Shown: positions 1 through 40,609, counted from the first letter of the stretch. The stretch: 64,000 nucleotides of DNA from an uncultured Candidatus Berkelbacteria bacterium (GCA_963698075.1 OY969116.1:862131-926130), one strand, 5' to 3'. A program made the numbers and translations. The notes: generated by a model not told the origin, from the letters alone.

Positions 1-1310
1 GCAAAGAGTCACTCAAAGTTGCCGAAAAAGCGGTTGAGGCCCCGGTTAAAAAAGCCGAAGAATTTTGGCATAAGCTCGGACCGGGACTAACCACCGGCGC
101 GGCTGATGATGATCCCTCTGGGGTGGCGACTTATTCCCAGCAGGGCGCTAAATACGGCTTTCAATTATTATGGCTGGCGCCGCTAACTTTTCCCTTGATG
201 GCTGTTGTTCAAGAAATCTGCGCCCGTATCGGCCTGGCCACCGGTCGGGGTTTGGCCGCCAATATCAAAAATCATTTTCCCCGCTGGGTTTTATTTACCA
301 CTGCCGGTCTTCTATTGGTCGCCAATTCCTTTAACATCGGCGCTGATTTAGGTGGTATGGCCAAGGCAACCCAACTTCTTGCCCCGGCAATTCCGTTTTG
401 GCTTTTGATTTTCGGCTTCGTCGTTTTAAGCGGCTTAATGCAGATTTTTATTTCTTACACCAAATATGCTCGCTATTTAAAATATCTGGCTTTAACTTTG
501 ATTGTCTACATTATCACTGCCTTTACCCTCAAGGGCTTTCCGTGGCTTGAGGTTTTCAAACACGCTTTTTCGCCCACGCTTAATTTTAGCAAAGAACAAT
601 TTATTTTAATCACCGGGATTTTAGGGACGACGATCTCGCCATATTTGTTTTTTTGGGAGACTTCTCAAGAAGTTGAGGAACGCATCGCGAATGGCAAAAC
701 CACTATTCATGAACGTCAAGATGTTGCAAGAACCGAGATTCGCAAGATGCGCACTGATGTTTGGACAGGAATGTTTTTTTCCAATTTAGTAATGTTTTTT
801 ATTGTCGCTGTCTGCGGGGCAACTTTGTTTGCTCACGGGATAACTAATATCAACAGTGCTGCTGATGCGGCAGCGGCTCTTAAACCCTTGGCGGGCAATT
901 TTTCCTCCTTGCTTTTTGCCTTGGGCATTATAACCACCGGACTTTTAGGCATCCCGGTTTTGGCCGGCAGCGCTTCTTACGCGATTTCGGAAAGTTTGGG
1001 TTGGCGAGAAGGCTTAAATCTTCGTCTTCGCCAAGCCGCCTATTTTTACGGCATGATTATTTTGGCCATGCTTATCGGTTTGTTTATTAATTTTGTGGGC
1101 CTCGATCCAATTAAAGCCCTAATTTACGCCGCCGTGATCAATGGTTTGGTCGCGCCGGTGATTATGATTCTCATTATGCTTCTTTCCGGCAGACACGAGA
1201 TCATGAATCATTGGGTTAACGGTCCCTGGACAAAAACCATCGGCTGGCTGGCCACAGCTTTCATGATTATTACTGGTTTAATTACGATTTATTCAATTTT
1301 CGGGGAATAA
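1..1310 (+). CDS. mntH: Nramp-family divalent metal (Mn2+/Fe2+) transporter. The 5' end lies upstream of the window.
   Basis: The reading frame is open from nt 3. It carries the Nramp signature GPG-x-DDP (EFWHKLGPGLTTGAADDDPSG) and is polytopic. The ORF track begins at an internal GTG. Confidence 0.78.
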   Translation, partial: KESLKVAEKAVEAPVKKAEEFWHKLGPGLTTGAADDDPSGVATYSQQGAKYGFQLLWLAPLTFPLMAVVQEICARIGLATGRGLAANIKNHFPRWVLFTTAGLLLVANSFNIGADLGGMAKATQLLAPAIPFWLLIFGFVVLSGLMQIFISYTKYARYLKYLALTLIVYIITAFTLKGFPWLEVFKHAFSPTLNFSKEQFILITGILGTTISPYLFFWETSQEVEERIANGKTTIHERQDVARTEIRKMRTDVWTGMFFSNLVMFFIVAVCGATLFAHGITNINSAADAAAALKPLAGNFSSLLFALGIITTGLLGIPVLAGSASYAISESLGWREGLNLRLRQAAYFYGMIILAMLIGLFINFVGLDPIKALIYAAVINGLVAPVIMILIMLLSGRHEIMNHWVNGPWTKTIGWLATAFMIITGLITIYSIFGE

Positions 1311-1311
1311 A

Positions 1312-1968
1312 ATGGGCATATTGTATATTGTGGGTACCCCCATCGGCAATTTGGAAGATATTACTTTAAGGGCTTTACGAATTTTAAAAGAAGTTGATTT
1401 AATTGCCTGTGAGGATACTCGCCGGACAAGCATTTTGTTAGAGCATTATAATATCCGTCAGCCGATGGTTTCTTTTCATCAACATTCAAAACTGCAAAAA
1501 ATTGACTATCTTGTGGATAAACTAAAATCGGGCCAAAATATTGCTATAGTCACGGATGCCGGCACCCCCGGTATTTCTGATCCTGGTGGCGTCTTGATAG
1601 CCGAGGCGATAAAGCATAAGATAGAAATAGAGCCAATTCCCGGCCCGTCGGCTCTGACAACGATGTTGTCGATTGCTGGAATTGGAGCCGAGAAATTTTT
1701 GTTTTTAGGCTATTTTCCCAAGAAAAAAGGCCGCCAAACACTTTTGAAAAATTTAAAAAAATTTCCCTTTCTGATCGTCTTTTTTGAATCGCCGTACAGA
1801 ATTCAGCGGACCCTCGAAGATATCCAAAAATATTTAGATAATCCCGAAGTAATTATTGGCCGCGAATTAACCAAAAAATTCGAAGAAATTTTACGCGGAA
1901 AAATTTCCGAAGTTTTACCGAAAATCCGACCTCAAGGTGAATTCGTAATAATTATCAACCATGAATAA
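1312..1968 (+). CDS. rsmI: 16S rRNA (cytidine1402-2'-O)-methyltransferase, tetrapyrrole methylase fold
   Basis: N-terminus ILYIVGTPIGNLEDIT ... ACEDTRRT ... DAGTPGISDPG is typical of RsmI. Confidence 0.85.
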   Translation: MGILYIVGTPIGNLEDITLRALRILKEVDLIACEDTRRTSILLEHYNIRQPMVSFHQHSKLQKIDYLVDKLKSGQNIAIVTDAGTPGISDPGGVLIAEAIKHKIEIEPIPGPSALTTMLSIAGIGAEKFLFLGYFPKKKGRQTLLKNLKKFPFLIVFFESPYRIQRTLEDIQKYLDNPEVIIGRELTKKFEEILRGKISEVLPKIRPQGEFVIIINHE

Positions 1969-3373
1969 CGAATCAAAATCAAAAGCTGATGTTTTTTTTG
2001 TCACCACCGCCATTGATTACGCCAGTGATCTTCCCCACGTCGGTCATGCCCAAGAAAAAATTGCCGCCGATATTTTGGCACGCTATTGGCGCCGCCGCGG
2101 CCGCGAAGTTTTCTTTCTGACGGGCACCGATGAACATGGCCTCAAAGTTTTTCAAGCTGCCCAAAAAAAAGGTCAAGAGCCAAAACAGTTTGTCGATGAT
2201 ATTGCCTTAAAATATCAAGCCACTTGGTCAGCCCTTGAAATCAAATACGATAATTTTCTGCGCACCACTGATCCGGAACATGAAAAATATGTCCAAGAAT
2301 TTGTCCAAAAACTCTATGAACTTGGCGAGGTCTACAAAGATCGCTACCAGGGACTTTACTGCGTTGGTTGTGAGGAATATAAAGTTAAAAGTGAATTATT
2401 GCCTGGAAATCTTTGCCCGACTCACAAAACTCCTTGCCAAGCAGTTTTCGAAGATGTCTATTTTTTCCGGCTTTCTAAATACAAACAACAAATTTTAGAC
2501 ATTATTAAACAAAAGAAAATTATCATCGAGCCCGAAACGCGGAGAAATGAGATCATTAGTTTCTTGACCAAAGAGCCCTTGCAAGATTTAGCGATTTCTC
2601 GTTCCAAAGTCAGCTGGGGAATTCCCATTCCCTGGGATACAACGCAGACCATTTATGTTTGGGTTGATGCCCTCTTAAATTACCTCACTGGTTCCCGTGG
2701 TAATTGGCCGCCGTCATTGCATATAATCGGCAAAGATATTTTTCGTTTCCACTGTATCATCTGGCCGGCGATGCTCTTGGCCGTCGGTTTAGAACTGCCG
2801 CGCAAAATTTTTATCCATGGTTTTTTATCCGTTGATGGTGAACGGATTTCTAAAACTCGTGGCAATGTGATTGATCCCTTACAAATTGCCAAAATTTATG
2901 GCGTTGATCCCCTACGCTATTTTTTGTTTCGCGAAACGCCCTTTTTTCAAGACGGTGACTTTTCTGTTGACCGTTTTGAGAGGCGATACAAAGCCGATCT
3001 GGCCAACGACCTAGGTAATTTAATCCAAAGAGTTTTAATTTTAGCCAGTCAAAATAAAATTAACTGGCAATATCGGACCATTACCAAGCCCTTTCATCAG
3101 ATCGATCAAGCCATCGAGGATTTAAAATTCGATCGAGCCTTGGAATTGATTTGGGACATCATTACTGAGGCCAACAAACGGATTGATGCTGAAAAACCCT
3201 GGGAATTGGCCAAAACCAACCCAAAAAGATTGACAGAAATTATCAGTCAACTATTGCAGGCGCTTTCTCAAATCGCTTACGAACTTGAACCATTTATGCC
3301 GGAGACCGCTTGGTCAATTATCGAGCAGCTTAAAAGCCTCAAACCCTATGTCCTTTTTCCGAGAAAGAAATAA
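1961..3373 (+). CDS. metG: Methionyl-tRNA synthetase (short class I form)
   Basis: HIGH-type motif (PHVGHA), KMSKS-type motif (RISKTRG) and zinc-knuckle cysteines. Overlaps the rsmI stop. Confidence 0.9.
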   Translation: MNNESKSKADVFFVTTAIDYASDLPHVGHAQEKIAADILARYWRRRGREVFFLTGTDEHGLKVFQAAQKKGQEPKQFVDDIALKYQATWSALEIKYDNFLRTTDPEHEKYVQEFVQKLYELGEVYKDRYQGLYCVGCEEYKVKSELLPGNLCPTHKTPCQAVFEDVYFFRLSKYKQQILDIIKQKKIIIEPETRRNEIISFLTKEPLQDLAISRSKVSWGIPIPWDTTQTIYVWVDALLNYLTGSRGNWPPSLHIIGKDIFRFHCIIWPAMLLAVGLELPRKIFIHGFLSVDGERISKTRGNVIDPLQIAKIYGVDPLRYFLFRETPFFQDGDFSVDRFERRYKADLANDLGNLIQRVLILASQNKINWQYRTITKPFHQIDQAIEDLKFDRALELIWDIITEANKRIDAEKPWELAKTNPKRLTEIISQLLQALSQIAYELEPFMPETAWSIIEQLKSLKPYVLFPRKK

Positions 3374-3384
3374 AGGAGGATTTT

Positions 3385-4224
3385 TTGTTCCCATTTATTG
3401 CCACTGTCACGCAGGCCGCCGGCATCATTGTTGATAAAATAATTTTGACTCGCCGGAGGATGGAGCTTCACGTTTACATCCCGGTTCTTTTTTTATTTCT
3501 GTTTTTACTCACTGGCATTTTGATGCCGTTTTTTGGCAACATTAGTTTAGACATTTTCCGGCCTTACTATTTAATAATCTTCTTGGCCATGATAATCTGC
3601 GCCTTGATTTGGAACGTTTTTTACTACAAAGGTGCCCAGGCGGAAAAAGTTCATGAATTTGAACTCATCATTATGTTCCAGCCATTGCTAACGATTCTTT
3701 TGGCGGCGATATTGATTGAAAAAAATACCAATATTCACCTCCTCATCGCCTCGGTCCTGGCATCCTTGGCGCTGATTTTTTCTCATCTTAAAAGAAATCA
3801 CTTTGAAATTTCCGCCGCCGGCAAGGGTCTCATTTTGGCGGTCGTTTTTATATCTGTGGAGATCATTTTACAAAAGATAATGCTTGAAGTTTTATCGCCA
3901 GTGGCTTTGTATTTTATCCGCACCGGGATTATTTTTCTCTTTTTCATGTTTTTTTATCGGCCGCATATTAGACAAGTAGCCAATACCAATGCCTTGCTGA
4001 TTTTGACGACTTCGGCTTTGGGCGTTGCTCAGATGGTAACCAAATTTTACGGCTTTGAGGTTTACGGGGTGATTTACACTTCTTTAATTTTGATTTTATC
4101 GCCAATTTTGGTCTATATTATCTCGACGATCGCCTTACACGAGCACGTCAAAGCAAGAACAATAATCTCTGGCTTAGTGATTTTAGGTTGTATCATTTAC
4201 GCGACGGTTTTTAATTTAAGATAG
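3385..4224 (+). CDS. Polytopic membrane protein, possibly a DMT/EamA-like transporter
   Basis: About 8-10 hydrophobic helices. TTG start, 5 nt after an AAGGAGG RBS. Confidence 0.45.
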   Translation: MFPFIATVTQAAGIIVDKIILTRRRMELHVYIPVLFLFLFLLTGILMPFFGNISLDIFRPYYLIIFLAMIICALIWNVFYYKGAQAEKVHEFELIIMFQPLLTILLAAILIEKNTNIHLLIASVLASLALIFSHLKRNHFEISAAGKGLILAVVFISVEIILQKIMLEVLSPVALYFIRTGIIFLFFMFFYRPHIRQVANTNALLILTTSALGVAQMVTKFYGFEVYGVIYTSLILILSPILVYIISTIALHEHVKARTIISGLVILGCIIYATVFNLR

Positions 4225-4247
4225 AATAAGATCTAAATAATACGAAA

Positions 4248-4285
4248 CAAGCCGCAGGCTCGAAAGCCTGCGGCTTGTATGTTGT
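4248..4285 (+). terminator. Rho-independent terminator after the membrane-protein gene
   Basis: GCCGCAGGC-TCGAAA-GCCTGCGGC hairpin followed by a T-rich run. Confidence 0.6.
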
Positions 4286-4306
4286 GTTCTCCACCTCCTT
4301 GTGGGG

Positions 4307-5632
4307 TTAGTGCGAAGGCCACTTCTCGCGGAATGGATCATCCGACTCCCGCGAGTAGAAGATGGCGATCAAGTGGCGCTGCCAGCCCATGAAGCCATCG
4401 GGCCAGAGGCGGACGTCCAGCCAATCCCCGGGCGGGACACGCATCGGCGGGTCAGCCCAGGGGTTTTCCCATACCCACATCTGCCAGGCATCGTGGATGT
4501 CAGTGCCAACGTTGTCCTTGCTCTGGCCGTTGAGTTCCCAGGAAGGCAGAGCCACCTTGAACTCCCGGGTCGGCAGGAAGGCTGGGGCGCGACTGCCATA
4601 GAAGCCCTCGCGGACCGTCAGGACAACCTCAGCTTTCGGATCGCGGGGAGACCTCTCGGCTTTGAAGACTTGGTATTCTCCTTGCCGAAGGTCCCAGGCC
4701 GAGTGAACGTAGTTCGGGCTGAATTTGGCCATGCCAGTGGTCAAGAGCCAAGCCGTCACCACCAGGCCGACTGCGAGATAGAAGCCGAAGGTCAGTCTCG
4801 CTATTTCCGGCTCGTTGTCCCAACCGCGCCGCAAGGGACCCTCGTGACTGACGCGAGCCAGCTCATAGCTCTTGATAAAGAGCGCCGAGCAGGCAAAGAC
4901 GAGCCAGTCGCGAGAGAGCAGAGAGTAGACCAGGGGCAGGGCCCAGTAGCGCTGTTCCATCAGTTCATAGAGGTGGCCGTGCCACTTAGGGTCGAGCTTC
5001 TTCTCCAAGATGTCTTCCGCCAGTCCGAGGACCAGGAGGACGACCAGAAAGGCGCCCGCCACGTTGAGCTCCAGGTTGATGGTCAGGAATGTCGGATTGG
5101 AGACGAAACTCTCGTGAAAGAACCTCGTCCCCACGAAGCTTCGGACCGCGAAGATGATCGGATCGGCCAAGAGAACCGCCAAAAGCATTACTGTCGTGGC
5201 CAAACCATGATTGGCGCGATCGATCTTTTCACGGACAAAGCAGACAAGGACCAAGGGAATCAGGAAATTGGCTAGGGGCGGGTGGGCGAGAATCAGGAGT
5301 GACCCCGCCAAACCCCAACCAATACCCAGGACCTTATCCGCTCCTCGAAACCAGACCAGACCGTGGTCGACGAGCAGGTCAGCCACCTTCATCTGGATAC
5401 CAAAGAAGATGGCCAGGGCTCCGACAAGGAGCTCTGTTGGGAGATACACCCCGGCGGCAACGATAGCGATGAGGCTAACCGTACCAGCCAGGGACACCAG
5501 GGCGGCAATATAGGTCAGACGACTGCGGGCCCAGGTGACGATTACAGGGACCCCGAGAACTCGGGGCATAGTCAGGCTTCTGACTGTCACAGCGTGCCTC
5601 CATATAGAGTCAAGGTTCAAATCGTCCCACAT
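4307..5632 (-). CDS. GC-rich (about 58%) polytopic membrane protein with a roughly 150-aa soluble C-terminal domain. Family not recognised.
   Basis: 441-aa ORF with coherent transmembrane-helix periodicity. A near-consensus promoter lies on the minus strand just upstream. Composition is foreign to the surrounding genome. Confidence 0.6.
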   Translation of the reverse strand: MWDDLNLDSIWRHAVTVRSLTMPRVLGVPVIVTWARSRLTYIAALVSLAGTVSLIAIVAAGVYLPTELLVGALAIFFGIQMKVADLLVDHGLVWFRGADKVLGIGWGLAGSLLILAHPPLANFLIPLVLVCFVREKIDRANHGLATTVMLLAVLLADPIIFAVRSFVGTRFFHESFVSNPTFLTINLELNVAGAFLVVLLVLGLAEDILEKKLDPKWHGHLYELMEQRYWALPLVYSLLSRDWLVFACSALFIKSYELARVSHEGPLRRGWDNEPEIARLTFGFYLAVGLVVTAWLLTTGMAKFSPNYVHSAWDLRQGEYQVFKAERSPRDPKAEVVLTVREGFYGSRAPAFLPTREFKVALPSWELNGQSKDNVGTDIHDAWQMWVWENPWADPPMRVPPGDWLDVRLWPDGFMGWQRHLIAIFYSRESDDPFREKWPSH

Positions 5633-5646
5633 CTTTGGGACATTGA

Positions 5647-5675
5647 ATTATAGCATAAATTGGTCTAAAAGTCAA
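5647..5675 (-). promoter_or_regulatory. Sigma70-like promoter for the minus-strand membrane-protein gene (TTGACT-17-TATAAT)
   Basis: The reverse complement reads TTGACTtttagaccaatttatgcTATAAT, about 15 nt before the ATG at 5632. Confidence 0.5.
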
Positions 5676-5773
5676 GGAATTATAATGCAGTTATAAGGAG
5701 GGATTTTGATAATATGTAAAGTTGACCTTTACTATGCTCAACACCCGCAAATCATAAAAATGTCAATACTCAC

Positions 5774-5809
5774 TTGACAAAATTGGTAAAATGTGATAAG
5801 ATGTGATAA
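5774..5809 (+). promoter_or_regulatory. Divergent sigma70-like promoter (TTGACA-17-TAAGAT) with tandem TGTGATAA repeats across the -10 element, followed by a roughly 75-nt hairpin-containing leader
   Basis: TTGACAaaattggtaaaatgtgaTAAGAT. TGTGATAA sits at 5792-5799 and 5802-5809. The leader hairpin is CAAGCG-GAAAT-CGCTTG. Confidence 0.45.
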
Positions 5810-5880
5810 TCAAGCGGAAATCGCTTGAGCGAACCTGAAAACCCGCCGGTGACGAGGTAAATCGGGAAAGGAGGTGGCCC

Positions 5881-6486
5881 ATGCGCTACCTGACAATAGC
5901 TGTACTGGTGGTAATGCTGTTGGGACTAGGGGTTTCTGCTTACGGGGCCCACGTTGAGGAGCCGGGGATCAACCTCGAGTCCATCAACATGGGTTACGAC
6001 CTCGAGCGGACCCCCGATGGCAACGAGACGACCGAGCTCTACGAGAACTTCTCGTTCTGCAACAAGACCTACCGAGTGAAGCTCTCTCTCGAGTACTACT
6101 CTGACGGCTATGACCGCTACACCCTCTACGCCGGCAAGAAGTCCAGCCCGACTATGGGACTGGTGCGCTGGGATGATTCGAGCCGCTTGTGGCTCGGCTT
6201 CAACCACGTCCAGCCCATCTCGAACGAGCTGACACTGATCCTCCGGCCGCTCAAAGGAGTCAATGCCGCCACCTGCGACCGCGCCTATCTCATCGCTGAC
6301 TACCAACTGAAGGGCGAACATCTGGGCGCGATGTTCCTGGCGGTGGGAATCGAGGGCGACGGCAAGGCCGAGGACTACTACCTTGGTCCCACTTACCGCG
6401 ATGGCGGCTGGAGCTTCTGGGCCGCCACACACCTGACCAAGGACGATTTCTACCTGGACGCCAGCTACTCAATGGCGTTCAAGTAG
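5881..6486 (+). CDS. Secreted protein (signal peptide MRYLTIAVLVVMLLGLGVSAYGA) with beta-rich composition resembling small outer-membrane proteins
   Basis: Signal peptide plus an AGGAGG RBS. GC-rich island gene. The beta-barrel-like assignment is inference only. Confidence 0.55.
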   Translation: MRYLTIAVLVVMLLGLGVSAYGAHVEEPGINLESINMGYDLERTPDGNETTELYENFSFCNKTYRVKLSLEYYSDGYDRYTLYAGKKSSPTMGLVRWDDSSRLWLGFNHVQPISNELTLILRPLKGVNAATCDRAYLIADYQLKGEHLGAMFLAVGIEGDGKAEDYYLGPTYRDGGWSFWAATHLTKDDFYLDASYSMAFK

Positions 6487-6510
6487 GGAACAACGACTAC
6501 TGACTAACCA

Positions 6511-6545
6511 GGCAGACAGGCCTTCAAACTTATGGCCTGTCTGCC
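6511..6545 (+). terminator. Perfect 12-bp stem terminator
   Basis: GGCAGACAGGCC-ttcaaacttat-GGCCTGTCTGCC followed by a T-containing tail. Confidence 0.6.
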
Positions 6546-6619
6546 CCATTTTCTCCTGATTCCATCCACGGATGGAGCCAGAAGACGAATGTTGTACCTG
6601 AACAAGGGAGGAAACCCTG

Positions 6620-6763
6620 ATGAACAAGAGATGGTTTCTTTTCGCCGTTATCGTCCTTGCCTGGATCGCTGTGGTTGTTCTGGGAGTCAAGTATGCCCCG
6701 TGGTCGTTTGCCGTCCTCGGCGGCGTCATCATTCTGCTCCTTATCTTGCGGAAGAGGAGGTGA
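6620..6763 (+). CDS. 47-aa hydrophobic membrane peptide (MNKRWFLFAVIVLAWIAVVVLGVKYAPWSFAVLGGVIILLLILRKRR)
   Basis: Below the ORF-track length cut-off. GGGAGG RBS 7 nt upstream. Its TGA stop is embedded in the RBS of the next gene. The overlapping long-frame ORF translates to low-complexity R/P/C-rich sequence. Confidence 0.5.
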   Translation: MNKRWFLFAVIVLAWIAVVVLGVKYAPWSFAVLGGVIILLLILRKRR

Positions 6764-6768
6764 GAGAG

Positions 6769-7413
6769 ATGATGAAGGTGCTTAGAGGCTCCTGCCTGGT
6801 TGCGAGTGGTGTGAAGGAGAAGGACGTATCCTCCTTCCTTCAGGAATGGGACCGGATAGGAGCGGAGCTGATTTCGGTAGAGAGGATCGGTATCAAGAAT
6901 CCTCGCTATCGAGTTCTCGCCTTCCTGCCCAATGGTCCGAATCATTCCTTTGCTTTGACCCACAGGTCTAAAGGCATTCACAATCTGGGTCAGGGCAAAC
7001 TGGTACGGAGCGAGACCGGAGCTGTCCGATTTGTGCCGGAGCGTTACCCCTACCCGGATGCCCAAGAAGTGGGTCGAGGTAGTAGCCGCGTAACCATGTA
7101 CACGGACCGGGACGGAAGGGTACACTTCAGCTTTCTGATACCCGGAACCCACTACCGGTGGCTGCACTGGATCGTTGATCCTCGCCGGATCGGTCCAAGG
7201 CAATTGCCATCAGGCTTTTTCCAATGGGACTTGGGTCTGCCCCAGCGCCGCCTGAGTTTACTAGCAAGTTTCGCGCTGGCGAAAGACACTGGGCGATGCC
7301 TGACACTCCACATGCAAGACCAGTACGGCAAGTTTCACGAACTTCCGGTCGAGAAGCGCGTGGCCAAGGTTCTTGGCCTTCGCGACTGTAACCCTCGAGA
7401 CGAGAGGAGGTGA
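6769..7413 (+). CDS. Hypothetical protein (214 aa) of the GC-rich island
   Basis: ATG preceded by GAGGAGGTGAGAGAG. Same frame as track ORF 6532..7413, but the region upstream of 6769 looks non-protein-like. Confidence 0.5.
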   Translation: MMKVLRGSCLVASGVKEKDVSSFLQEWDRIGAELISVERIGIKNPRYRVLAFLPNGPNHSFALTHRSKGIHNLGQGKLVRSETGAVRFVPERYPYPDAQEVGRGSSRVTMYTDRDGRVHFSFLIPGTHYRWLHWIVDPRRIGPRQLPSGFFQWDLGLPQRRLSLLASFALAKDTGRCLTLHMQDQYGKFHELPVEKRVAKVLGLRDCNPRDERR

Positions 7414-7418
7414 GAGAG

Positions 7419-8254
7419 ATGCCTGAAGAGCCCAAAGATGGCTATCTGATCATCATCAGAGATGTTCGGCACGGCGATTTCGTGGGACTGCTACCGCCTT
7501 TGTTCTGGCAGCCAACGGCGCGACTGTCCACTTGGTCTCCCGAAACGAAGAGAAGCTCGAGCAGATCGCCCACAACATCACCCATTTCCTTGAGGAGGTT
7601 AGGGAGGATCAAGTCGAACGATCAGCCGTTGATCTCCTTGATGAAGGGCAAGTCACGGCGTTCGTGGACGCCTTGCCGAAGAATAAACGGATCTTTTGGG
7701 TCCAGTCTATCGGCATGGGAGCCGGTACTTACCAACTCAAGGACGGAAACCCGTATCTGCATCTTGAGGATATCCCGCTCGAACTTCTTGAGCTGGAATC
7801 GACAACTGTGCTCAAGGGAACACACATCCTGATGCAGAAGCTACTGCCGGTGTTCCGTGAGCAAAACAGTCGCTTCGGAATGGAGACGAGGATTGCGATT
7901 GTAAGTTCGATGTCAGCAATCCGAGGCTATAACGTTGGCGGGACGCACTGCGCAGCCAAGGGCGCGATCAGCCGATATGCCAATGCGGCCATGCTCGACC
8001 TCTGGAAAGAAGGTATCTATGTTACCGATGTCAGGCCAGGGGTCGTCGACACCGGGATGTACGATTCGGAAGCGGTTCAGAAGGCAGTCCTGGAGATCGA
8101 CGCGGAATATGGCAATCACTGGAACCAGAATGGCCTTCAACTTGCTCCGCCCATCGCCGTCGGTTACGCCATCGCTACTGCGCTGACCATTCCCGCTCAC
8201 ATTCCGTCAATCAATCTGGTGGCGCAGGGGCAATTCCCGAACGAGGGGTCGTAA
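7419..8254 (+). pseudogene. SDR-family (short-chain dehydrogenase-like) gene that is frameshifted and degenerate
   Basis: The frame from 7419 encodes ...LIIIRDVRHGDFVG and then needs a -1 shift near 7486 to continue TATAFVLAANGATVHLVSRNEEKLEQ..., which aligns in register with the Rossmann region. The catalytic region reads SSMS...GGTHCAAK, with His in place of the Tyr of the YxxxK motif. Confidence 0.45.
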
Positions 8255-8278
8255 ATCTTAACAACTGAAAATAGATCT

Positions 8279-8317
8279 TGCCCACCATAGCCTTGGGCGA
8301 AGGTGGGCCTTTTCTCC
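8279..8317 (+). terminator. Terminator after the SDR-like gene
   Basis: GCCCACC-atagccttgggcgaa-GGTGGGC followed by CTTTTCTCC. Confidence 0.55.
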
Positions 8318-8377
8318 CGGTTATCACTACGGTGGTAGCTGGAAGCAAAAGAATGTACCTGAACAAAGGAGAAGCCA

Positions 8378-8572
8378 ATGTCGGCTTTTATGGGTGTGAA
8401 GACCAAAGACCGGAAGGGCAGGATCGTCGGGATCACACCGGATGTCGCCGCCGGTATGATATTTCTAGGGCTGGTAACGCCGGTCAGAAAGGTCGTTCAA
8501 CCAACACGCAAGAAGAAGGGGAAGGTTGCCTCGAAGCGCAAATCGGCGAAACGAAAAAAGAAGAGAGGCTGA
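8378..8572 (+). CDS. 64-aa protein with a strongly basic Lys/Arg-rich tail
   Basis: AAGGAGA RBS. Preceded by the same ATGTACCTGAACAAAGGAG module that precedes the 47-aa peptide gene. Confidence 0.45.
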   Translation: MSAFMGVKTKDRKGRIVGITPDVAAGMIFLGLVTPVRKVVQPTRKKKGKVASKRKSAKRKKKRG

Positions 8573-8573
8573 G

Positions 8574-8909
8574 ATGGCCAAGATTCTGCTCTGGAACGTG
8601 CCGGCGGAGTATCGCGAGGCGCTGGAGAAGGAAGCGAGACCGTTCGTGTCGCTGGAGACCCTAGAGATCGATGAAGTTTCTGGTATCAACCAATTTGATA
8701 GCAAAGCCAAAGAGGCGACTGCTTCAGGTAGGCCCTATACTCAGATTGTAGCTTTCTTGACAGAGCCATCCAATGTGAGAGGGGCGCTGGATGTACTCAG
8801 TGAGCGGGCGACAGAAATGCAGGCTGATGTAATCTGTCACACAGCGCTGGTTCCGCTTCCCGACTTCATCGCCGAGTTCAATCGCACCTTCCACCCGTGG
8901 AAGAAGTGA
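8574..8909 (+). CDS. Hypothetical protein (112 aa, MAKILLWNVPAEYREALEKE...)
   Basis: The ATG lies 1 nt after the upstream TGA, giving translational coupling. A terminator follows at 8938-8972. Confidence 0.5.
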   Translation: MAKILLWNVPAEYREALEKEARPFVSLETLEIDEVSGINQFDSKAKEATASGRPYTQIVAFLTEPSNVRGALDVLSERATEMQADVICHTALVPLPDFIAEFNRTFHPWKK

Positions 8910-8937
8910 CATCACATCATCAAGGAGAGGGATCAAT

Positions 8938-8972
8938 GAGGTCCGCCTTTGGTGGACCTCTTCTTTTTCCCT
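8938..8972 (+). terminator. Terminator closing the GC-rich island
   Basis: AGGTCCGCC-tttggt-GGACCT followed by cttctttttcc. Confidence 0.55.
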
Positions 8973-9021
8973 GCAAATCAGCTATATTATAAATAGTATG
9001 GTTGTCAGGGACGGAGGAAAG

Positions 9022-9792
9022 ATGGCAATAGAGTATGATAAGTTTAAAAATCTGGGCCTGGCTGCGGGTTTAAGCGACAATGAAACCAAAATGTATTTGG
9101 CAATTTTGGAAATGGGGCCCTCGGCGATTCAAAAAGTCGCCCAAAAAGTCGGCCTTTCAAGAGTGGCCAGCTACACCATTGCCGAACAACTCATCCAAAA
9201 AGGTTTAGCCAGTTGGTTTAAAAAAGATAAAAAAAGATATGTATCCGTCGAAAATCCTGACTATATTTTAGAACTTATTAAACGTCGCGAGAGCGAACTC
9301 GAAGAAGAAAGAACCAAAATTCGCAAACTTCTGCCTGAACTTAAAACCTATTATCGCTTAGCCGGCAAACGGCCCGAAGTCAGATTTTATGAAGGTGTTG
9401 AAGGGTTAAAGGCGATTTATGAAGATACCTTAAATTCTCAAAAAGACCTTTTAGTTTACTCTGACCTTGCTGCCACTGAACGATTGATTCCGGACATGAA
9501 GTTTTGGAACAATTATGTCAGGCGAAGGGTCAAACTCGGCATCAACGCTAAAGGGATTTGTCCGCGCACCCCGGAAACCGTGGCTTTGGATAAAAAAAGC
9601 CCCCAAGAATTGCGGGAGATTCGTTTCCTGCCAGAGGGCGAAACTTTTGGACCCACCGAACTCTATATTTACGGCGATAAAATTGCCCTGCTTTCGTTCG
9701 AGCGCGAAATCGTCGGTGTCGTCATCGAAAATAGGGAACTAGCCGAAACCCAACGGAAAATCTACACGAGGATGTGGCAGAGCCTTAAGTAA
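9022..9792 (+). CDS. TrmB-family HTH transcriptional regulator
   Basis: The N-terminal wHTH (ETKMYLAILEMGPSAIQKVAQKVGLSRVASYTIAEQLIQKG) is typical of TrmB. GGAGG RBS. Confidence 0.7.
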   Translation: MAIEYDKFKNLGLAAGLSDNETKMYLAILEMGPSAIQKVAQKVGLSRVASYTIAEQLIQKGLASWFKKDKKRYVSVENPDYILELIKRRESELEEERTKIRKLLPELKTYYRLAGKRPEVRFYEGVEGLKAIYEDTLNSQKDLLVYSDLAATERLIPDMKFWNNYVRRRVKLGINAKGICPRTPETVALDKKSPQELREIRFLPEGETFGPTELYIYGDKIALLSFEREIVGVVIENRELAETQRKIYTRMWQSLK

Positions 9793-9875
9793 ACAAACTA
9801 CAACTTAAAGTATAAAGATGATATCATTTAAGTTTTTTCTTGAAGTTTTAACATTTGCGTTTTAAACTTTTAGTT

Positions 9876-10649
9876 ATGTATGTAGATACGCACGCCCATC
9901 TCAATTTTGAGGCGTTCGAAAAAGATTATCGTGATGTAATCAATCGCGCTTTGGCGGCTGATGTAAAGGGCATAATTAATGTTGGTTCTAATTTTGAAAC
10001 GTCAAAGAAAGCGATTGAGATCGCGGAAAAATATGACAAAGGGGTTTACGCCGCCATCGGTCTTCATCCGATCCACGTCAAGGATGAAGAGTTTGATGAA
10101 GCGGCTTTTTTGAAACTGGCCAAAAACAAAAAAGTCGTGGCGCTGGGGGAGACGGGCTTGGATTACTATTATGATAAGTCATCAGCCAAGCTTCAAAAAG
10201 AAATCTTTCGCAAATTTTTACAAATGTCGCATGCGGTTTCGAAACCCGTGATTTTACACTCGCGGGATGCCGGCGAGGATGTTTTGTCAGTACTGATGGA
10301 GGAGCGGCCCGAACCGCGGGGTGTGATGCATTGTTTTCCGGGCGATTGGCCGTATGCGAAAGTGATTCTGGATATGGGCTTATACCTTTCCTTCACCGGC
10401 CTCATCACTTTTTCTAAAAACTATGGAACTTTTGAGGTAATTAAAAATACGCCTTTAGATCGCTTAATGATTGAAACCGACTGCCCATTTATGACACCCG
10501 AGCCATATCGGGGGAAAAGAAACGAGCCAGCTTTTGTTATCGAAGTCGCCAAAAAAATCGCCGAAATAAAAAAATTACCTTTAGAAAAAGTTGCTGAACA
10601 AACTTCAAAGAATGCAATCAAACTTTTTAAATTAGAAATTAATGGTTAA
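9876..10649 (+). CDS. tatD: TatD-family metal-dependent hydrolase (DNase)
   Basis: DTHAHL start, a GxHP motif, and conserved His and Asp positions. Confidence 0.85.
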   Translation: MYVDTHAHLNFEAFEKDYRDVINRALAADVKGIINVGSNFETSKKAIEIAEKYDKGVYAAIGLHPIHVKDEEFDEAAFLKLAKNKKVVALGETGLDYYYDKSSAKLQKEIFRKFLQMSHAVSKPVILHSRDAGEDVLSVLMEERPEPRGVMHCFPGDWPYAKVILDMGLYLSFTGLITFSKNYGTFEVIKNTPLDRLMIETDCPFMTPEPYRGKRNEPAFVIEVAKKIAEIKKLPLEKVAEQTSKNAIKLFKLEING

Positions 10650-11517
10650 AAGACTAAATAGAAAAAATTTTCACATAATCAGAAAAGTTCATTATGACCG
10701 GCGAGAGCGATATATTTGTCTAATTCTCAAACGAAATAATCAGAAGTTTTTTTACAAAGAACTAAATAATGATCGGCCGGATAAATTTAAAGAGCAGATT
10801 GATTTTCAAAAAAGAGTAGAAGAAAGCCAAACGGAAATCATTTTACCAAAATTAATAGATTATAAGCTTGGTGCTGAAAAAAGTTGGGCGCTTTGGGAAT
10901 ATTTACCCGGAAAACATTTAGCTGATTGGAAACCTAAAAAGATAAGACAACTGGCCAATTGGCTGGAACCGATTGTTGAGGTTTTAATTCAAATGTTAAA
11001 AATCAAACCCTTGGAGGGAAATTATCATATCTCTGAAATTATGCTCGAGAGAGCCGAAGGGTGGTCAAAAGAACCGGTCCTGCAAGGTTTTTATTCCGAA
11101 TCATTTAAAAATAAAATTATCTTCCTGATTAACAAAAACCATTCCAAACTAATCAATGGTTTTAATCATTCGGATTTTGTTCCTTGGCACATGCACGAAC
11201 TAAAATTTCCCAAATTTTACCTTGTGGATTATGAGAATTGTAAAGGAAAACCTTTGTATTATGATTTAGCCCATTTTTATCACCGGCTCTATACGAAACT
11301 TGGAGAGCCAAAAATTGCTGATAAATTTCTGGAAATCTTTTTTAAAAGAGCAAAATTACCGCCTGATTTTGAAGCGATATTTTCGACAATTTTAGGCCAC
11401 CGAATTATGGCGGGATTTTTTGACTGCCTTGTTAATAAAGATGGAACTGATATTAAATTACATCAAAAACTATTGGATAATTATCTTAAGACTACAAAAA
11501 ATAGAAAGGGAAAATGA
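10642..11517 (+). CDS. Protein-kinase-like fold phosphotransferase (aminoglycoside/choline kinase family)
   Basis: Brenner-like motif HSDFVPWHM ... LVDYEN. Confidence 0.5.
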   Translation: MVKRLNRKNFHIIRKVHYDRRERYICLILKRNNQKFFYKELNNDRPDKFKEQIDFQKRVEESQTEIILPKLIDYKLGAEKSWALWEYLPGKHLADWKPKKIRQLANWLEPIVEVLIQMLKIKPLEGNYHISEIMLERAEGWSKEPVLQGFYSESFKNKIIFLINKNHSKLINGFNHSDFVPWHMHELKFPKFYLVDYENCKGKPLYYDLAHFYHRLYTKLGEPKIADKFLEIFFKRAKLPPDFEAIFSTILGHRIMAGFFDCLVNKDGTDIKLHQKLLDNYLKTTKNRKGK

Positions 11518-11693
11518 AGAAATCATTTCATCATGGACCTTCAAGTGCGGTGTACGGGCTCGGATTTATCGGCGCGGCAATTTGGTTTATCAGCCAAGCG
11601 CACGGTTTTTGGCCGATCGTTTTAGCAATTTTGAAAGCCATCGTCTGGCCAGCATTTTTGGTCTACCAGGCCTTCCAATTTTTGGCAAAATAG
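11514..11693 (+). CDS. 59-aa small membrane protein (MKKSFHHGPSSAVYGLGFIGAAIWFISQAHGFWPIVLAILKAIVWPAFLVYQAFQFLAK)
   Basis: ATGA overlap with the upstream gene. Two predicted transmembrane helices. Below the ORF-track cut-off. The 117-aa track ORF in another frame is not protein-like. Confidence 0.45.
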   Translation: MKKSFHHGPSSAVYGLGFIGAAIWFISQAHGFWPIVLAILKAIVWPAFLVYQAFQFLAK

Positions 11694-11696
11694 CAT

Positions 11697-11730
11697 CAGC
11701 CGATTTGACCCCCGGCGATTTGGGGGGGGG
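11697..11730 (+). repeat. Copy 1 of the AGCCGATTTGAC-family motif (cagccgatttgacccccggcgatttggggggggg)
   Basis: Begins 4 nt after a TAG stop. Contains the hairpin CCCCC-ggcgattt-GGGGG. Confidence 0.6.
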
Positions 11731-11786
11731 CGTGGTCTGCCGGCGGCAATTGGCCCAGAATTTGGTTTCCTAAGCATTAAACAAAC

Positions 11787-11809
11787 GCCACCTGCGATAT
11801 GCGGGTGGC
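11787..11809 (-). terminator. Terminator for the minus-strand zinc-ribbon gene
   Basis: GCCACCTGC-gatat-GCGGGTGGC. Confidence 0.5.
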
Positions 11810-11834
11810 AAGACGAAATGAAAAGTTGGATCTT

Positions 11835-12227
11835 CTACAGGCTATGGGTGTGGGTTCTGACCGTGAAGTAATGGCAACGCGGACATTTGTGGTGGGTGAA
11901 ATGCCGGCCATAACCAGGTTCCTCAGCCACTTGTTCCATAGGAATAAGACATTTGGGACATAACGCAGCATTCGAATGATCTTCCAGAATGCCACACTCC
12001 AAACATCTAACCTGGAACCGGTGCGGACCCGACGGTACAAACAGAGGAGCGGTGATGAGCTTTTTTTCCTCATCAGACCATACCAACCAACCCAAGAATT
12101 CCCACCGATGTTCACAGACCATCGTCTCCTCAGCAACAGTCATCCAGGGTTCTCCCTTTTTCTTGTGGATATCAGTCCAATTAAATATTACTCCAAATCC
12201 AGATAAAATCAACTCAAAAGAGGCCAA
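11835..12227 (-). CDS. Small zinc-ribbon protein, GC-rich (three CxxC pairs: CLECG...CPKC...CPRC)
   Basis: 130-aa ORF with a TTG start; the alternative internal ATG gives 11835..12143. Cys spacing is typical of zinc ribbons. GC is about 50% against a 38% background. Confidence 0.45.
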   Translation of the reverse strand: MASFELILSGFGVIFNWTDIHKKKGEPWMTVAEETMVCEHRWEFLGWLVWSDEEKKLITAPLFVPSGPHRFQVRCLECGILEDHSNAALCPKCLIPMEQVAEEPGYGRHFTHHKCPRCHYFTVRTHTHSL

Positions 12228-12237
12228 TTTAAAAGCT

Positions 12238-12270
12238 ATTCTATTATTCTATAGAATATGCGAATATCAT
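12238..12270 (+). repeat. Palindromic element copy 1: ATTCTATTATTCTATAGAATATGCGAATATCAT
   Basis: Contains the perfect 14-bp palindrome TATTCTATAGAATA. An identical 28-nt core occurs at 23934. Confidence 0.7.
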
Positions 12271-12318
12271 TTAAAAATCATATTACATTCCCTCAAAAAA
12301 ATCACCCAGGTAATATTA

Positions 12319-13260
12319 TTAATTCTTCCTAATTGTAAACTTCCCAGTTTTAGAACGAGAAACCACACCTTTTTTATGATGAAAACTCTCAATTTTTTCC
12401 GCGTCAAAATGTTTATGGATTTGCGGTTCGAGGTCTTGGATTTTCGCGCAGGCCTCTAAATAATCACAAATCATATTATCAATTTCAATTTCTTTTTGAT
12501 TTTTGCCTTTAGGCATGCTATTTGATTTTTGATTTTGAAACTTCTGTTTCATCAAGGGACAGAGATGCGCGTACTCACAATAATCGCATAAAAAATTATG
12601 TTTTGGCCGCCACTCGTTTTCTTTTTCAATTTTCTCGGCAGTTTTGACTATTTCTTCTTTGATTTGCTCGACTTCATCCGGTCTTCTTTTGGTTGTCATT
12701 TGTGAATCGTGTTTTAAATAATATAAAGTCAGGCGAATCTCTTTGGCTTCGGGCCATAAGTTTTCCACTGCCAAATGATAAATGCAAAGTTGTTTATCGC
12801 GATTAACATCATCTTGAGAAGGTAACTGTTTACTGGTTTTATAATCGATGACTTCAAAAGCACCAATGGGCAGTTTATCGACGCGATCAATCATTCCCGA
12901 TAAAGTATGCTCGCCCACGGGAATTTGAAAGCGTTTTTCGGTTGAGACAATATTTCGCAAGCCGGGTTTGTGACCAGCATGAAATTTATCGAGCATTTGT
13001 TTTCCCCAATCAAAATATTGTTTGGCTTGAGCGGGATTTTTAAAAACCTCGTCGCGCCAGTTGTTTTTGAGATATTCTAAAAGCTCCTCCCGAGGCGGCA
13101 TAATTGGGTCTTTTTTTAAAGCATATTGAACCACTTCGTGAATTAAAGAACCAAAAAAAAGCTCGGGCTTTTCGGGAACCTTAATCCGATCAATGTATTG
13201 GAATTTATATTTGGCCGGACAACGATTAAAAGTTACTAAAGCCGAATAGGAAATGCGCAT
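12319..13260 (-). CDS. Cas4/RecB-family PD-(D/E)XK nuclease with a 4-Cys Fe-S cluster signature
   Basis: N-terminal Cys (RCPAKYKF), motif II EVIDYK, motif III QLCIY, and the C-terminal motif C-x2-C-x5-C (CDYCEYAHLC). No CRISPR array or cas genes are nearby. Confidence 0.7.
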   Translation of the reverse strand: MRISYSALVTFNRCPAKYKFQYIDRIKVPEKPELFFGSLIHEVVQYALKKDPIMPPREELLEYLKNNWRDEVFKNPAQAKQYFDWGKQMLDKFHAGHKPGLRNIVSTEKRFQIPVGEHTLSGMIDRVDKLPIGAFEVIDYKTSKQLPSQDDVNRDKQLCIYHLAVENLWPEAKEIRLTLYYLKHDSQMTTKRRPDEVEQIKEEIVKTAEKIEKENEWRPKHNFLCDYCEYAHLCPLMKQKFQNQKSNSMPKGKNQKEIEIDNMICDYLEACAKIQDLEPQIHKHFDAEKIESFHHKKGVVSRSKTGKFTIRKN

Positions 13261-13350
13261 GAGTTTATTCTATCCTTAAAACTCGTCCTTAGCAAGAAAA
13301 TGTGCTAAAATAAAAAATGGATTTCGGGTTCAATCCATTTAAATAAAAGT

Positions 13351-13854
13351 ATGAAAAATTGGTTGTGGGTGACTTTAATTATTGCTCTTTTTCTCGTCGG
13401 TTTAGCTGGCGGCATCATTTATTGGTCTCTCGTTAAGACAAAAAATATCGCCAACTCCGCTTTAGACGCCGCTAAAAATGCCGAGAGTGTGACGACTCCC
13501 ACGCCTTCTCCTTCGATTTCTACAATACCGGTAGCACTGAATATGCCCTCTGCCGACGTTGCCGGCGAAGATCTCGCCGATGTCCCACGTTACAGCGGTT
13601 CGATGAGGACGGGCTACGATAAAAATGATGATGGCACCGAGATTAACCTCGAATACATTACCTCTTCCAGTACCAAAGAAATTCTCGATTTTTATAAAAA
13701 AACCCTGGTTGACAATGGTTGGACACTTTTTGCCGAAGGCTCCCAAAATTTAAATTTTTCGAAAAGTCAGACTGATGTCTCGATTGAAATCATTGAGGCA
13801 AACAACAATCTTATCCAATATCGTATTCATTCTTTTCGAACTCAAGGGGAATAA
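13351..13854 (+). CDS. Membrane-anchored hypothetical protein with a Ser/Pro/Thr linker
   Basis: N-terminal transmembrane helix followed by a soluble domain. Confidence 0.5.
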   Translation: MKNWLWVTLIIALFLVGLAGGIIYWSLVKTKNIANSALDAAKNAESVTTPTPSPSISTIPVALNMPSADVAGEDLADVPRYSGSMRTGYDKNDDGTEINLEYITSSSTKEILDFYKKTLVDNGWTLFAEGSQNLNFSKSQTDVSIEIIEANNNLIQYRIHSFRTQGE

Positions 13855-13917
13855 ATCTTTTTGCGGGACTTGACAAAACTCTATATATAATCTAATATAT
13901 ATTTAGAAAGGACGATT

Positions 13918-14112
13918 ATGAATAAAAATATTAATGTCTATAATTTACAGGCCAATATTTCCAAGGTTTTGAAAGAAACCGAAAAAGGCGCTGTTTATGA
14001 GGTAAATCGTTATTCAAAACCAGTGGCGGTTTTGATCTCTTACAAAAATTACCTCAAGCTCAAAGGCGAGTGCAAACATTGTATTGAAGATTTAAGGAAA
14101 TTGGTTAAATGA
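13918..14112 (+). CDS. Phd/YefM-like antitoxin-fold protein (64 aa)
   Basis: Matches the Phd/YefM N-terminal pattern NxSKVLxxxEKGxxxEVxRxSKPVAVLIS. Its stop overlaps the iscS start (ATGA). Confidence 0.5.
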   Translation: MNKNINVYNLQANISKVLKETEKGAVYEVNRYSKPVAVLISYKNYLKLKGECKHCIEDLRKLVK

Positions 14113-20243: not shown

Positions 20244-20324
20244 TATAAATGGGCTTGCTCTGCAGGCCATTTTATGGTATAACAACATCAGCCCGAAAGG
20301 GGAGTCAACAAGGAGGATAAACCG

Positions 20325-20819: not shown

Positions 20820-20894
20820 GCGCTCGTGACTTCACGTGGGCGGCGGCACGTGCCGCCGCCCACCAAACTTTACTTAAAATTATTAAAATATTTC

Positions 20895-22956: not shown

Positions 22957-23048
22957 GAGTTAGACCAAAATTATTTAAATAGAAAAATCAAGAAAGCGCC
23001 AAAGAAATCCCAGGTGAGATAGACAATGTCATCTCACGGGATAAATAA

Positions 23049-40606: not shown

Positions 40607-40609
40607 TCA

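Follow-up and report, generated by a model that had tools for sequence, protein, structure and literature searches.

We analysed a 64,000-nucleotide stretch of DNA from an uncultured Candidatus Berkelbacteria bacterium (hereafter the window, meaning the whole stretch at its full length), in which positions 4290-8975 form a GC-rich block of seven predicted genes flanked by genes for MetRS, an EamA transporter, a TrmB-family regulator and TatD. An earlier note, made from the sequence of the window alone, had described the block as a probably foreign island. Four other lineages were found to have a GC-rich block at this site; synonymous divergence (dS) among them is saturated, and searches gave no mobility-gene matches and no donor, which argues against that description. 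Judging from these comparisons, the block appears, with fair confidence on our part, to be an old locus of envelope genes, specific to its lineage, in a bacterium with a small genome, and not a recent import. To judge from the 929-kb contig, the gene content and the nearest named TrmB homologue, the host is probably a member of the Patescibacteria, also called the candidate phyla radiation (CPR).

Composition and boundaries of the GC-rich block

The block has a GC content of 0.555. Native 4.7-kb windows average 0.421±0.014 with a maximum of 0.447, so that the excess amounts to ~9.5 standard deviations (SD). In sliding windows the flanks vary between 38 and 45% GC (38-45%) and a plateau of 52-62% extends from ~4250 to ~8900; GC rises above 0.51 in no other multi-kb segment across the 64-kb window. 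The left step, from 0.43 to 0.58 within ~100 bp at 4250, coincides with the terminator at 4247-4278, and the right step, from 0.54 to 0.37-0.41 at ~8900-8950, coincides with the terminator at 8938-8960. Windowed GC and a terminator scan thus bear out the earlier note in reporting a GC jump of ~4.7 kb with sharp edges at two terminators. The note gave the levels as ~38% and ~58%; the measured values are 55.5% for the block and 42.1±1.4% elsewhere. The GC-rich domain corresponds to two transcription units: it begins past their promoters and stops at their terminators. Native composition is kept by the promoter region, the TrmB gene and the EamA gene, and in the intergenic region 5633-5880 GC dips to ~44-46%.

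GC at third codon positions (GC3) is 0.62-0.81 in the open reading frames (ORFs) of the block and 0.27-0.50 in native genes. It peaks exactly in the annotated frames, indicating that the ORFs of the block are real coding frames; those with orthologues have ratios of nonsynonymous to synonymous divergence (dN/dS) of 0.2-0.3. GC at first and second positions (GC1 and GC2) is also raised, and amino-acid composition is shifted as well. At four-fold codons GC (GC4) is ~0.55-0.61 in native genes and 0.69 in the block; GC3 at the other, two-fold, codons is 0.31 in native genes versus 0.72 in the block. Since native GC4 is already high, the contrast between the block and native genes lies mainly at two-fold codons. 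The codons AAG, GAG, TTC, CAC, ATC and CTG have values of 0.41-0.84 in the block and 0.09-0.35 in native genes.

Codon usage of the native genes is itself divided by family. Four-fold families favour C or G (GCC, GGC, ACC, CGC and CCG; GC4 0.55) and two-fold families favour A or T (AAA 0.83, TTT 0.80, AAT 0.78 and GAA 0.77; GC3 0.31). Because of this dependence on codon family, GC3 alone understates or misplaces compositional contrasts in this genome.

When normalised for base composition, the tetranucleotide signature of the block correlates with that of the rest of the window at r = 0.49. Native segments give 0.60±0.06 with a minimum of 0.487, and the corresponding block of a sister lineage (contig L002) correlates with the native DNA of the window at 0.60. 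In this signature the block is at the low end of the native values, and the evidence for a foreign origin is essentially base composition with its attendant codon and amino-acid shifts, a composition that is stable.

The same locus in other lineages and the age of its GC excess

Three genes form a conserved core of the locus: those of a polytopic membrane protein, of a secreted β-rich protein (a predicted barrel) and of a ~100-aa protein with invariant ends. The middle genes differ from lineage to lineage. Among 5.8 billion clusters the membrane protein has only three close relatives, and a hidden Markov model (HMM) search of 1.84 billion representatives yielded one further full-length relative. 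In total ~15 billion proteins were searched; all full-length relatives lie in the same chromosomal context, and no homologue was found among these proteins in any other genomic context.

The synteny comparison places a GC-rich block at the same position in four other lineages. The first (contigs L002, L007 and L008, from two NCBI assemblies) has TatD and TrmB followed by six genes, the membrane protein and EamA, with flanks 77-87% and core proteins 50-56% identical to the window. The second (L003 and L032, SRR31719924) has MetRS (86%), EamA, membrane protein and barrel on one contig, and the block end, TrmB and TatD on the other. In the third (L004, L005 and L009, from ENA and JGI) the order is MetRS, EamA, membrane protein, barrel, proteins of 178, 78 and 101 aa with a paralogue of the last, and TrmB; identities to the window are 50% for MetRS, 64% for TrmB and 39% for EamA. 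In the fourth (L031; TrmB 71% identical) the 1.4 kb upstream of TrmB is occupied by small, unrelated ORFs. The earlier note had named the occurrence of these genes at native GC in sister genomes as a sign against a foreign island; sister genomes do have the genes at this position, but the block is again GC-rich, with block GC of 56-65% against ~40% in the flanks for L002, 50-58% against 30-43% for L004 and 50-56% against 33-41% for L031. Core divergence has the same rank order as flank divergence (L002-L003 < window-L002 < window-L004).

A block-free relative was reached through the 90%-identity cluster of the window MetRS. It is represented by four contigs from four samples (L034-L037), which are ~80% identical to the window in nucleotide sequence (89% for the MetRS protein, 86% for Nramp and 80% for TatD) and carry Nramp, RsmI, MetRS, EamA′ and TatD in this order, without the block and without TrmB. 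The stop codon of EamA′ in L034 overlaps the TatD start, and the protein is 41% identical to the EamA of the window; EamA of the block-bearing sisters is 81-84% identical, and that of L004 39%. Nucleotide homology between the window and L034 ends at 3369 and resumes at 9881. Since the breaks fall here and not at 4290 and 8975, the variable unit is EamA, block and TrmB together (~3370-9880), and the proposed clean insertion of the block between a native terminator and a native promoter is not supported. The presence of the block in deeper-branching lineages makes replacement or loss in the L034 lineage the most parsimonious explanation. The comparison with L034 shows that whole-segment exchange happens at this locus.

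Across the comparisons the core genes have dN/dS of 0.2-0.5, indicating that they are functional and under purifying selection. Between the window and L002/L003, dS exceeds 1.2 in the block and the flanks alike, and at two-fold sites of conserved residues the flanks keep a residual signal of 0.09 (~0.3 per lineage). GC at the two-fold sites of the island is 0.74 in both lineages, versus 0.26 in the flanks; in the comparison with L004 the values are 0.63 and 0.23, respectively. By simple arithmetic on these two-fold values, passive decay at flank rates would require an ancestral deviation of >1. As synonymous sites are saturated and the block is nevertheless GC-rich in each lineage, slow amelioration cannot explain the excess. 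The GC excess therefore appears, as far as sequence divergence can tell, to be an old and maintained property of the locus. As to its cause, we lean towards selection on transcripts or codon usage, the alternative being repeated cassette exchange from a GC-rich pool. Selection of this kind would fit a domain whose boundaries are those of transcription units.

Several observations weigh against this account of an old, maintained locus. Taxon sampling is thin (five block-bearing lineages, mostly on short contigs), and the 'block' of L031 is recognised by composition and position only. Polarised four-fold changes in the L002/L003 pair comprise 5 from A or T to G or C (W→S) versus 12 in the opposite direction (S→W), which are too few to show equilibrium. 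Between L002 and L003 the membrane protein is 85% identical and the first 85 residues of the barrel only 40%; membrane-gene dS is 0.53, below the flank dS of ~1.0; and L003 is without the 325-aa gene of L002, gene content varying among lineages. This mosaicism and the low membrane-gene dS fit cassette exchange as well. Other single-gene GC-rich islets of the window (described below) could point to a GC-rich mobile gene pool. Finally, the barrel model has a predicted local distance difference test (pLDDT) score of 65 and was made from a 3-sequence alignment, and four other models score 35-48.

The rival that best survives, though we consider it rather doubtful, is a hypervariable surface locus in which divergent GC-rich cassettes from a separate pool are swapped at a fixed site via recombination in conserved flanks. 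It would account for the L002-L003 differences just listed (the missing 325-aa gene, the barrel N-terminal part diverging more than the membrane protein, and the dS of the membrane gene), and more generally for gene content that differs despite flanks of 77-87% identity. In L034 an unrelated EamA allele stands for the whole segment of EamA, block and TrmB, with breakpoints at gene boundaries, and the GC-rich islets elsewhere in the window include a zinc-ribbon gene akin to the Cys-rich genes of the L002 block. However, no pool was found, nor did the searches reveal a copy of any core gene outside the chromosome or in a different context, and core divergence tracks the rank of flank divergence. 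Exchange among AT-rich relatives would leave the high GC of the pool to be accounted for, and genes for sugar biosynthesis or glycosyltransferases are missing from the locus.

A local GC-biased neutral process, whether gene conversion at a hotspot or a transcription-linked bias in mutation or repair, acting without selection on products or transcripts, is in our estimation improbable. In its favour are the shifts seen at all three codon positions and at both two-fold and four-fold sites, and it would agree with the signs of recombination at the locus and with a domain that ends exactly at terminators and spares the promoter region. But the recombining flanks, EamA, TrmB, MetRS and TatD, should gain GC too; all of them are at native GC, and biased gene conversion therefore fits poorly. 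A general transcription-linked bias also fits poorly, since the presumably highly transcribed rpsB, tsf and GAPDH genes are not GC-rich, nor is that of trigger factor. For gene conversion in bacteria the reported change in GC3 amounts to a few percent, compared with ~40 points at the two-fold sites of the block.

We find it very unlikely that the block is a recent horizontal acquisition, that is, a 4.7-kb island from a GC-rich donor placed between the EamA terminator and the TrmB promoter. The ~9.5-SD GC excess and sharp edges, the ORFan products, the shifts in amino-acid composition, GC1 and GC2, and the existence of one close relative (L034-L037) without the block would all suit such an event. 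They are outweighed by a GC-rich block at the same site down to 50% MetRS identity, with saturated synonymous divergence, by an AT-rich control region that is conserved and of host type, by a tetranucleotide signature at the low edge of the native range, and by indel boundaries at 3369/9881 that are not the composition boundaries. No donor homologue was found among the ~15 billion proteins. Searches of Pfam, NCBIfam and PHROGs with the seven products gave no match to mobility genes, be they of integrases, transposases, conjugation or phages; tRNA genes are absent from the window, and no direct repeats pair the block ends. The core genes have no relatives in IMG/VR viral contigs, which together with the null results in PHROG and PADLOC argues against a phage or defence link.

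An assembly chimera, with DNA of a GC-rich organism mis-joined into the contig, can be dismissed as extremely improbable: sharp composition steps in a metagenome-type assembly (a 929-kb contig) might suggest one, but the Logan assembly of ERR10755944 (contig L001, 6658 bp), maybe built from the same reads, is 100% identical over 3910-10567 including both junctions, four further assemblies, made from different samples, have the genes in this order too, and both junctions lie at terminators of convergent or tandem genes. A 929,420-bp contig in NCBI and ENA, presumably that of the source genome, also encodes the barrel protein and TrmB.

Control region, genes and neighbours of the block

The features of the locus are collected in Table 1.

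Table 1. Genes and regulatory elements in and around the GC-rich block (positions in the window)
Feature	Position	Strand	Remarks
EamA/DMT-family transporter	3385-4224	+	Pfam EamA 2e-15; native GC; convergent with the membrane-protein gene
Bidirectional intrinsic terminator	4247-4278	both	14-bp stem, 100% complementary, T-runs on both strands; serves EamA on the + and the membrane-protein gene on the - strand
Polytopic membrane protein, 427 aa	4307-5590 (ORF extends to 5632)	-	Gene callers start at 5590
Membrane-protein promoter TTGACT-17-TATAAT	5675-5647	-	Upstream TG; scan score 11/12
Palindrome GTAAAG-N5-CTTTAC	5716-5732	between promoters	Candidate operator; only copy in the window
Promoter of the + operon, TTGACA-17-TAAGAT	5774-5802	+	Upstream TG; scan score 10/12
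Palindrome/hairpin TCAAGC(G)-loop-(C)GCTTGA	5810-5828	+	Directly downstream of the + promoter; candidate operator or stem in the 5′ untranslated region
Secreted protein, 201 aa	5881-6486	+	Signal peptide; 12 amphipathic β-strands
Hairpin	6511-6545	+	12-bp perfect arms, then a T-rich stretch; after the barrel gene; putative internal terminator or attenuator (inverted repeat I4)
Hydrophobic peptide, 47 aa	6620-6763	+	RKRR tail; ORF, called on L001; GC3 0.71; lineage-specific
Protein of 214 aa	6769-7413	+	GC3 0.63; lineage-specific
Decayed SDR gene	7419-8254; remaining 240-aa ORF 7532-8254 from TTG	+	Pfam adh_short
Hairpin GCCCACC...GGTGGGC	8280-8317	+	Followed by CTTTTCTCC; after the SDR relic; terminator-like; read by eye, missed by the simple scan
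Protein of 64 aa	8378-8572	+	One hydrophobic segment, Lys-rich tail; ORF, called on L001; lineage-specific
Cytoplasmic protein, 111 aa	8574-8909	+	Third core gene; conserved ends MAKILLWNVP ... FIAEFNRTFHPWKK
Intrinsic terminator of the + operon	8938-8960	+	10-bp stem, then TTCTTTTT
TrmB-family regulator	9022-9792	+	PF01978 2.1e-10, 40.8 bits (cut-off 25.6); native GC

The divergent promoter region contains 7 promoter-like sites, compared with 2.2±1.5 in shuffles. The promoter scan and the local dip in GC confirm the minus-strand promoter and the AT-rich divergent region that had been described from the sequence, and the terminator-like hairpins at 6511-6545 and 8280-8317 agree with the internal terminators proposed for the plus-strand series. 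When the window, L003, L002 and L004 were aligned over their divergent intergenic regions, mean column identity was 71%, with long invariant runs; the adjoining coding DNA is barely alignable. Both hexamers of the minus-strand promoter are invariant in all four aligned lineages. In the plus-strand promoter the -35 hexamer and the spacing are kept in all four and the -10 hexamer in three, L004 being different. The GTAAAG-N5-CTTTAC palindrome is kept in the window, L002 and L003 and not in L004. The TCAAG/CTTGA arms at 5810-5828 are invariant in 4/4 lineages and their loop varies; the TCAAGC palindrome occurs nowhere else in the window, and shuffled sequences contained one in 2 cases out of 100. 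As the arms show no covariation, their roles as a DNA operator and as an RNA stem are inseparable. In the four lineages whose contigs cover it, the AT-rich control region is of host type and strongly conserved.

All seven ORFs are as originally described, except that the last protein has 111 aa and not 112, and gene prediction done independently on the identical Logan contig L001 gave the same set. The seven products were searched against Pfam, NCBIfam, PHROG and PADLOC, and the ORF resembling short-chain dehydrogenases/reductases (SDR) is the only one to match any model in these collections.

The membrane protein has an N-terminal domain of ~10 helices, related to a family of ~180-aa membrane proteins, and a lineage-specific C-terminal part of ~130 aa. 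The family has 103 matches in the HMM search (~100 cluster representatives at 50% identity). No Pfam model covers its members, and the search for solved structural relatives of the membrane protein found none. Residues D71 and H128 (window numbering) are invariant and K68, A70, E75, H76, D124 and N127 near-invariant; the conserved polar residues suggest a catalytic or ion-binding role. The small homologues of the membrane domain, found on metagenome contigs, have native low GC in AT-rich genomes. On one contig (L019) such a homologue and a TrmB-like gene form a divergent pair, close to a further two TrmB paralogues, and on two others (L016 and L030) the homologue has TatD no more than a few kb away. 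With their low GC and similar neighbourhood, these homologues place the nearest kin of the largest gene of the block in AT-rich genomes and not in GC-rich donors. The three TrmB-like paralogues of L019 all fall within 6 kb (9123-14787) around the small membrane-protein homologue, and this arrangement hints at a wider functional link between the membrane-protein family and TrmB-type regulators.

The 201-aa secreted protein is predicted to be a 12-stranded KdgM/NanC-like β-barrel, and on the strength of this model it may function as a channel. It has no Pfam or NCBIfam match at E ≤ 1 and no PDB sequence match at E ≤ 10, and it ends in ...SYSMAFK, with Lys last and without an aromatic terminal residue. 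Among the smaller products, the 47-aa peptide has no orthologue in L002 or L004, the 214-aa protein no family or PDB match, and the 64-aa protein sub-threshold family matches only. The 111-aa protein has orthologues that are 61% (L002) and 52% (L004) identical, L004 carrying a paralogue too, and it likewise has no family or PDB match.

The SDR ORF matches PF00106 adh_short (9.3e-12, 45.3 bits, cut-off 26.6) from profile position 30 onwards. The original ATG at 7419 has a strong ribosome-binding site (RBS) and opens MPEEPKDGYLIII, in a frame other than that of the remaining ORF; the frame breaks at ~7455-7470. The in-frame codons upstream of the TTG at 7532 read ...FRGTATAFVLAANGATVH, a typical SDR helix-strand segment without a start codon. 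In a joined translation the score climbs from 45.3 to 61.6 bits, and the match reaches back to profile position 13. The Gly-rich dinucleotide-binding motif (TGxxxGxG) is absent from the ORF even after joining, the catalytic Tyr of YxxxK is replaced by His (THCAAK), and the gene is absent from the sister islands. The SDR gene is thus a decaying, frameshifted passenger. Reading the region upstream of the ORF in genetic code 25 (TGA = Gly) was tried and rejected, as the translation was still unlike an SDR.

A 19-nt exact repeat, AGAGGAGGTGAGAGAGATG, comprising the RBS and ATG, lies at 6753-6771, ahead of the 214-aa gene, and at 7403-7421, ahead of the SDR relic. The 47-aa and 64-aa genes have a common leader (GAATGT..ACCTGAACAARGGAG; 6587-6622 and 8352-8380, respectively), each copy following a terminator-like hairpin; for the 47-aa gene the leader common to the two is also listed as GAATGT..ACCTGAACAAGGGAGG. 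These repeats suggest that the middle of the block may have grown by duplicating or recombining small gene modules.

TrmB adjoins the block in all five block-bearing lineages and is missing along with it from L034-L037, a pattern that would agree with TrmB regulating the block. Its nearest named homologue is from Candidatus Magasanikbacteria (37% identity); another homologue (P0116) is 41% identical, non-syntenic and uninformative as an outgroup.

Taken together, these elements would form a module in which two back-to-back extended -10 σ70-type promoters lie in an AT-rich control region with one or two candidate operators. The leftward promoter would drive the polytopic membrane protein and the rightward one an operon whose first gene encodes the Sec-exported predicted barrel channel and whose last encodes the small conserved cytoplasmic protein. 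The middle of the operon would hold interchangeable small genes, here those of two membrane peptides and the 214-aa protein and the decaying SDR gene. The adjacent TrmB regulator, and probably the convergent EamA, would belong to the same co-inherited module, and the two transcription units would have been held at their own GC equilibrium through >1 substitution per synonymous site in several lineages. A more far-reaching proposal, which we put forward tentatively and think unlikely to hold in full, is that the two divergent operons encode an undescribed envelope module and form a domain held ~13 points overall, and ~40 at two-fold sites, above genomic GC by selection on transcripts or codons (e.g. 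for tRNA-dependent or RNase-resistant expression of envelope genes). The 12-stranded barrel, in an organism without an outer membrane, would then act in the membrane of the host or in an unrecognised outer layer.

Genes of atypical GC are routinely interpreted as recent horizontal acquisitions, and in reduced genomes such as those of CPR the prediction of islands depends on GC. Any such predictor would flag the block, yet it appears old, is syntenic and is under purifying selection. Genes a few bases away, the likely regulator included, stay at native composition, and the locus may therefore serve as a natural case for what holds local composition off genomic equilibrium, be it transcript selection, biased conversion or cassette pools. 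The predicted barrel, in a lineage thought to be without an outer membrane, would be relevant to the construction of the envelope in ultra-small episymbionts, or to their contact with hosts. The uncharacterised content of the block also includes a membrane-protein family without a Pfam model or a solved fold.

Some further observations concern the surroundings of the locus. Cumulative GC skew has its minimum at ~3800-4000, with a sign change close to the left edge of the block, and rises steadily across the remaining window; the left arm (1-4000) is too short to tell whether the minimum marks a replication origin or a terminus. A second variable spot lies right after TatD (10642-12300); in the window it holds a gene of 33% GC for an APH-like phosphotransferase, and GC reaches 50% in a patch at 11600-12200; downstream of TatD, L034 (13078-14316) and the L007 lineage have a GH99/WbsX-like gene. 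L034 also carries, at 2695-5673, a UvrD-family helicase gene with an intein (Pfam Intein_splicing).

Shorter GC-rich stretches occur elsewhere in the window. An islet at 20300-20900 (52-56% GC) contains a plus-strand gene (20325-20819, GC3 0.65) whose 164-aa product is anchored in the membrane at its N-terminus and has no family match; in composition it is anomalous in the way of the main block. The most GC-rich spot of the window (23000-23480, 60-65%) holds a minus-strand gene (23127-23477) whose product is a 116-aa CxxC...CxxC zinc-ribbon protein, with a weak Zn_Ribbon_TF match (1.5e-4, below the cut-off), similar in kind to the small Cys-rich proteins of the L002 block. Between rpmE (40163-40432, minus strand) and rpsB (41506) there is ~1 kb (40450-41400) with only implausible ORFs and a local bump of ~53% GC at 40700-41000. 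The segment 46000-46520 has 56-58% GC and no convincing ORF; located directly upstream of uvrB (46575-48551), it may represent a structured RNA that is divergent or of an undescribed kind. Rfam gave no match in the whole window at gathering thresholds, nor in 4000-9200 and 40200-46600 at E ≤ 0.1, indicating that the GC-rich stretches are not known RNA genes. Ribosomal RNA as the source of the size and GC of the block was considered as well and rejected on account of this null result and of a GC3 periodicity that tracks the ORFs.

Comparison with known systems

In Streptomyces, bldA and the TTA codon provide codon-based regulation, which we invoke only as an analogy of working. The gene set of the block similarly uses codons that are rare in its genome, and by this analogy its codon usage could tie translation to tRNA supply. 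Unlike bldA/TTA, the block shifts whole-gene composition, including amino-acid usage, and not one rare codon.

TrmB-family proteins are sugar-responsive regulators located next to transport genes in Thermococcales and other prokaryotes. As in TrmB operons, a TrmB regulator of the helix-turn-helix type here stands beside channel-like and membrane proteins, and there are palindromes in the promoter region; unlike them, the block is without an ABC transporter or glycolytic gene. To our knowledge, GTAAAG-N5-CTTTAC and TCAAGC-N-GCTTGA match no known TrmB or TGM (Thermococcales glycolytic motif) sites.

With classical genomic islands the block shares atypical composition, ORFan content and absence from one close relative. 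It differs from them in that its ORFs match no mobility-gene family, that no tRNA, att repeat or donor was found, that it is syntenic across deep divergence with saturated dS, and that its promoters are conserved and of native type.

The KdgM/NanC porins (PDB 4pr7 and 2wjr) form a family that we take to be Pfam PF06178. The 201-aa protein has a signal peptide and, at moderate model confidence, a predicted 12-stranded barrel that may be of their kind; it differs in having no profile match, ~9% identity and a C-terminus of F-K. Whereas KdgM and NanC are outer-membrane porins, the host of the block is probably a Patescibacterium, and for Patescibacteria the absence of an outer membrane has been proposed (PMC12102498). 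If the host does belong to this group, a barrel would be out of place in it.

The O-antigen (rfb) and capsule loci of Enterobacteria and streptococci are fixed-position, hypervariable surface loci of atypical GC. Unlike in those loci, the composition of the block deviates upward, being GC-rich in an AT-rich genome, and all variants contain a three-gene core, with a dedicated regulator and conserved divergent promoters in the unit. Genes for glycosyltransferases, sugar-nucleotide synthesis, flippases, Wzx/Wzy or ABC exporters were not detected in the block of the window or in those of L002 and L004. The likeness lies in a fixed site between conserved housekeeping flanks, in variable gene content, in atypical composition that has not ameliorated, in whole-segment replacement with breakpoints in the flanks, and in products of the envelope or surface. 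As its sequence and gene content suggest, the block can be described as a fixed-site, compositionally atypical, hypervariable surface locus built from uncharacterised gene families.

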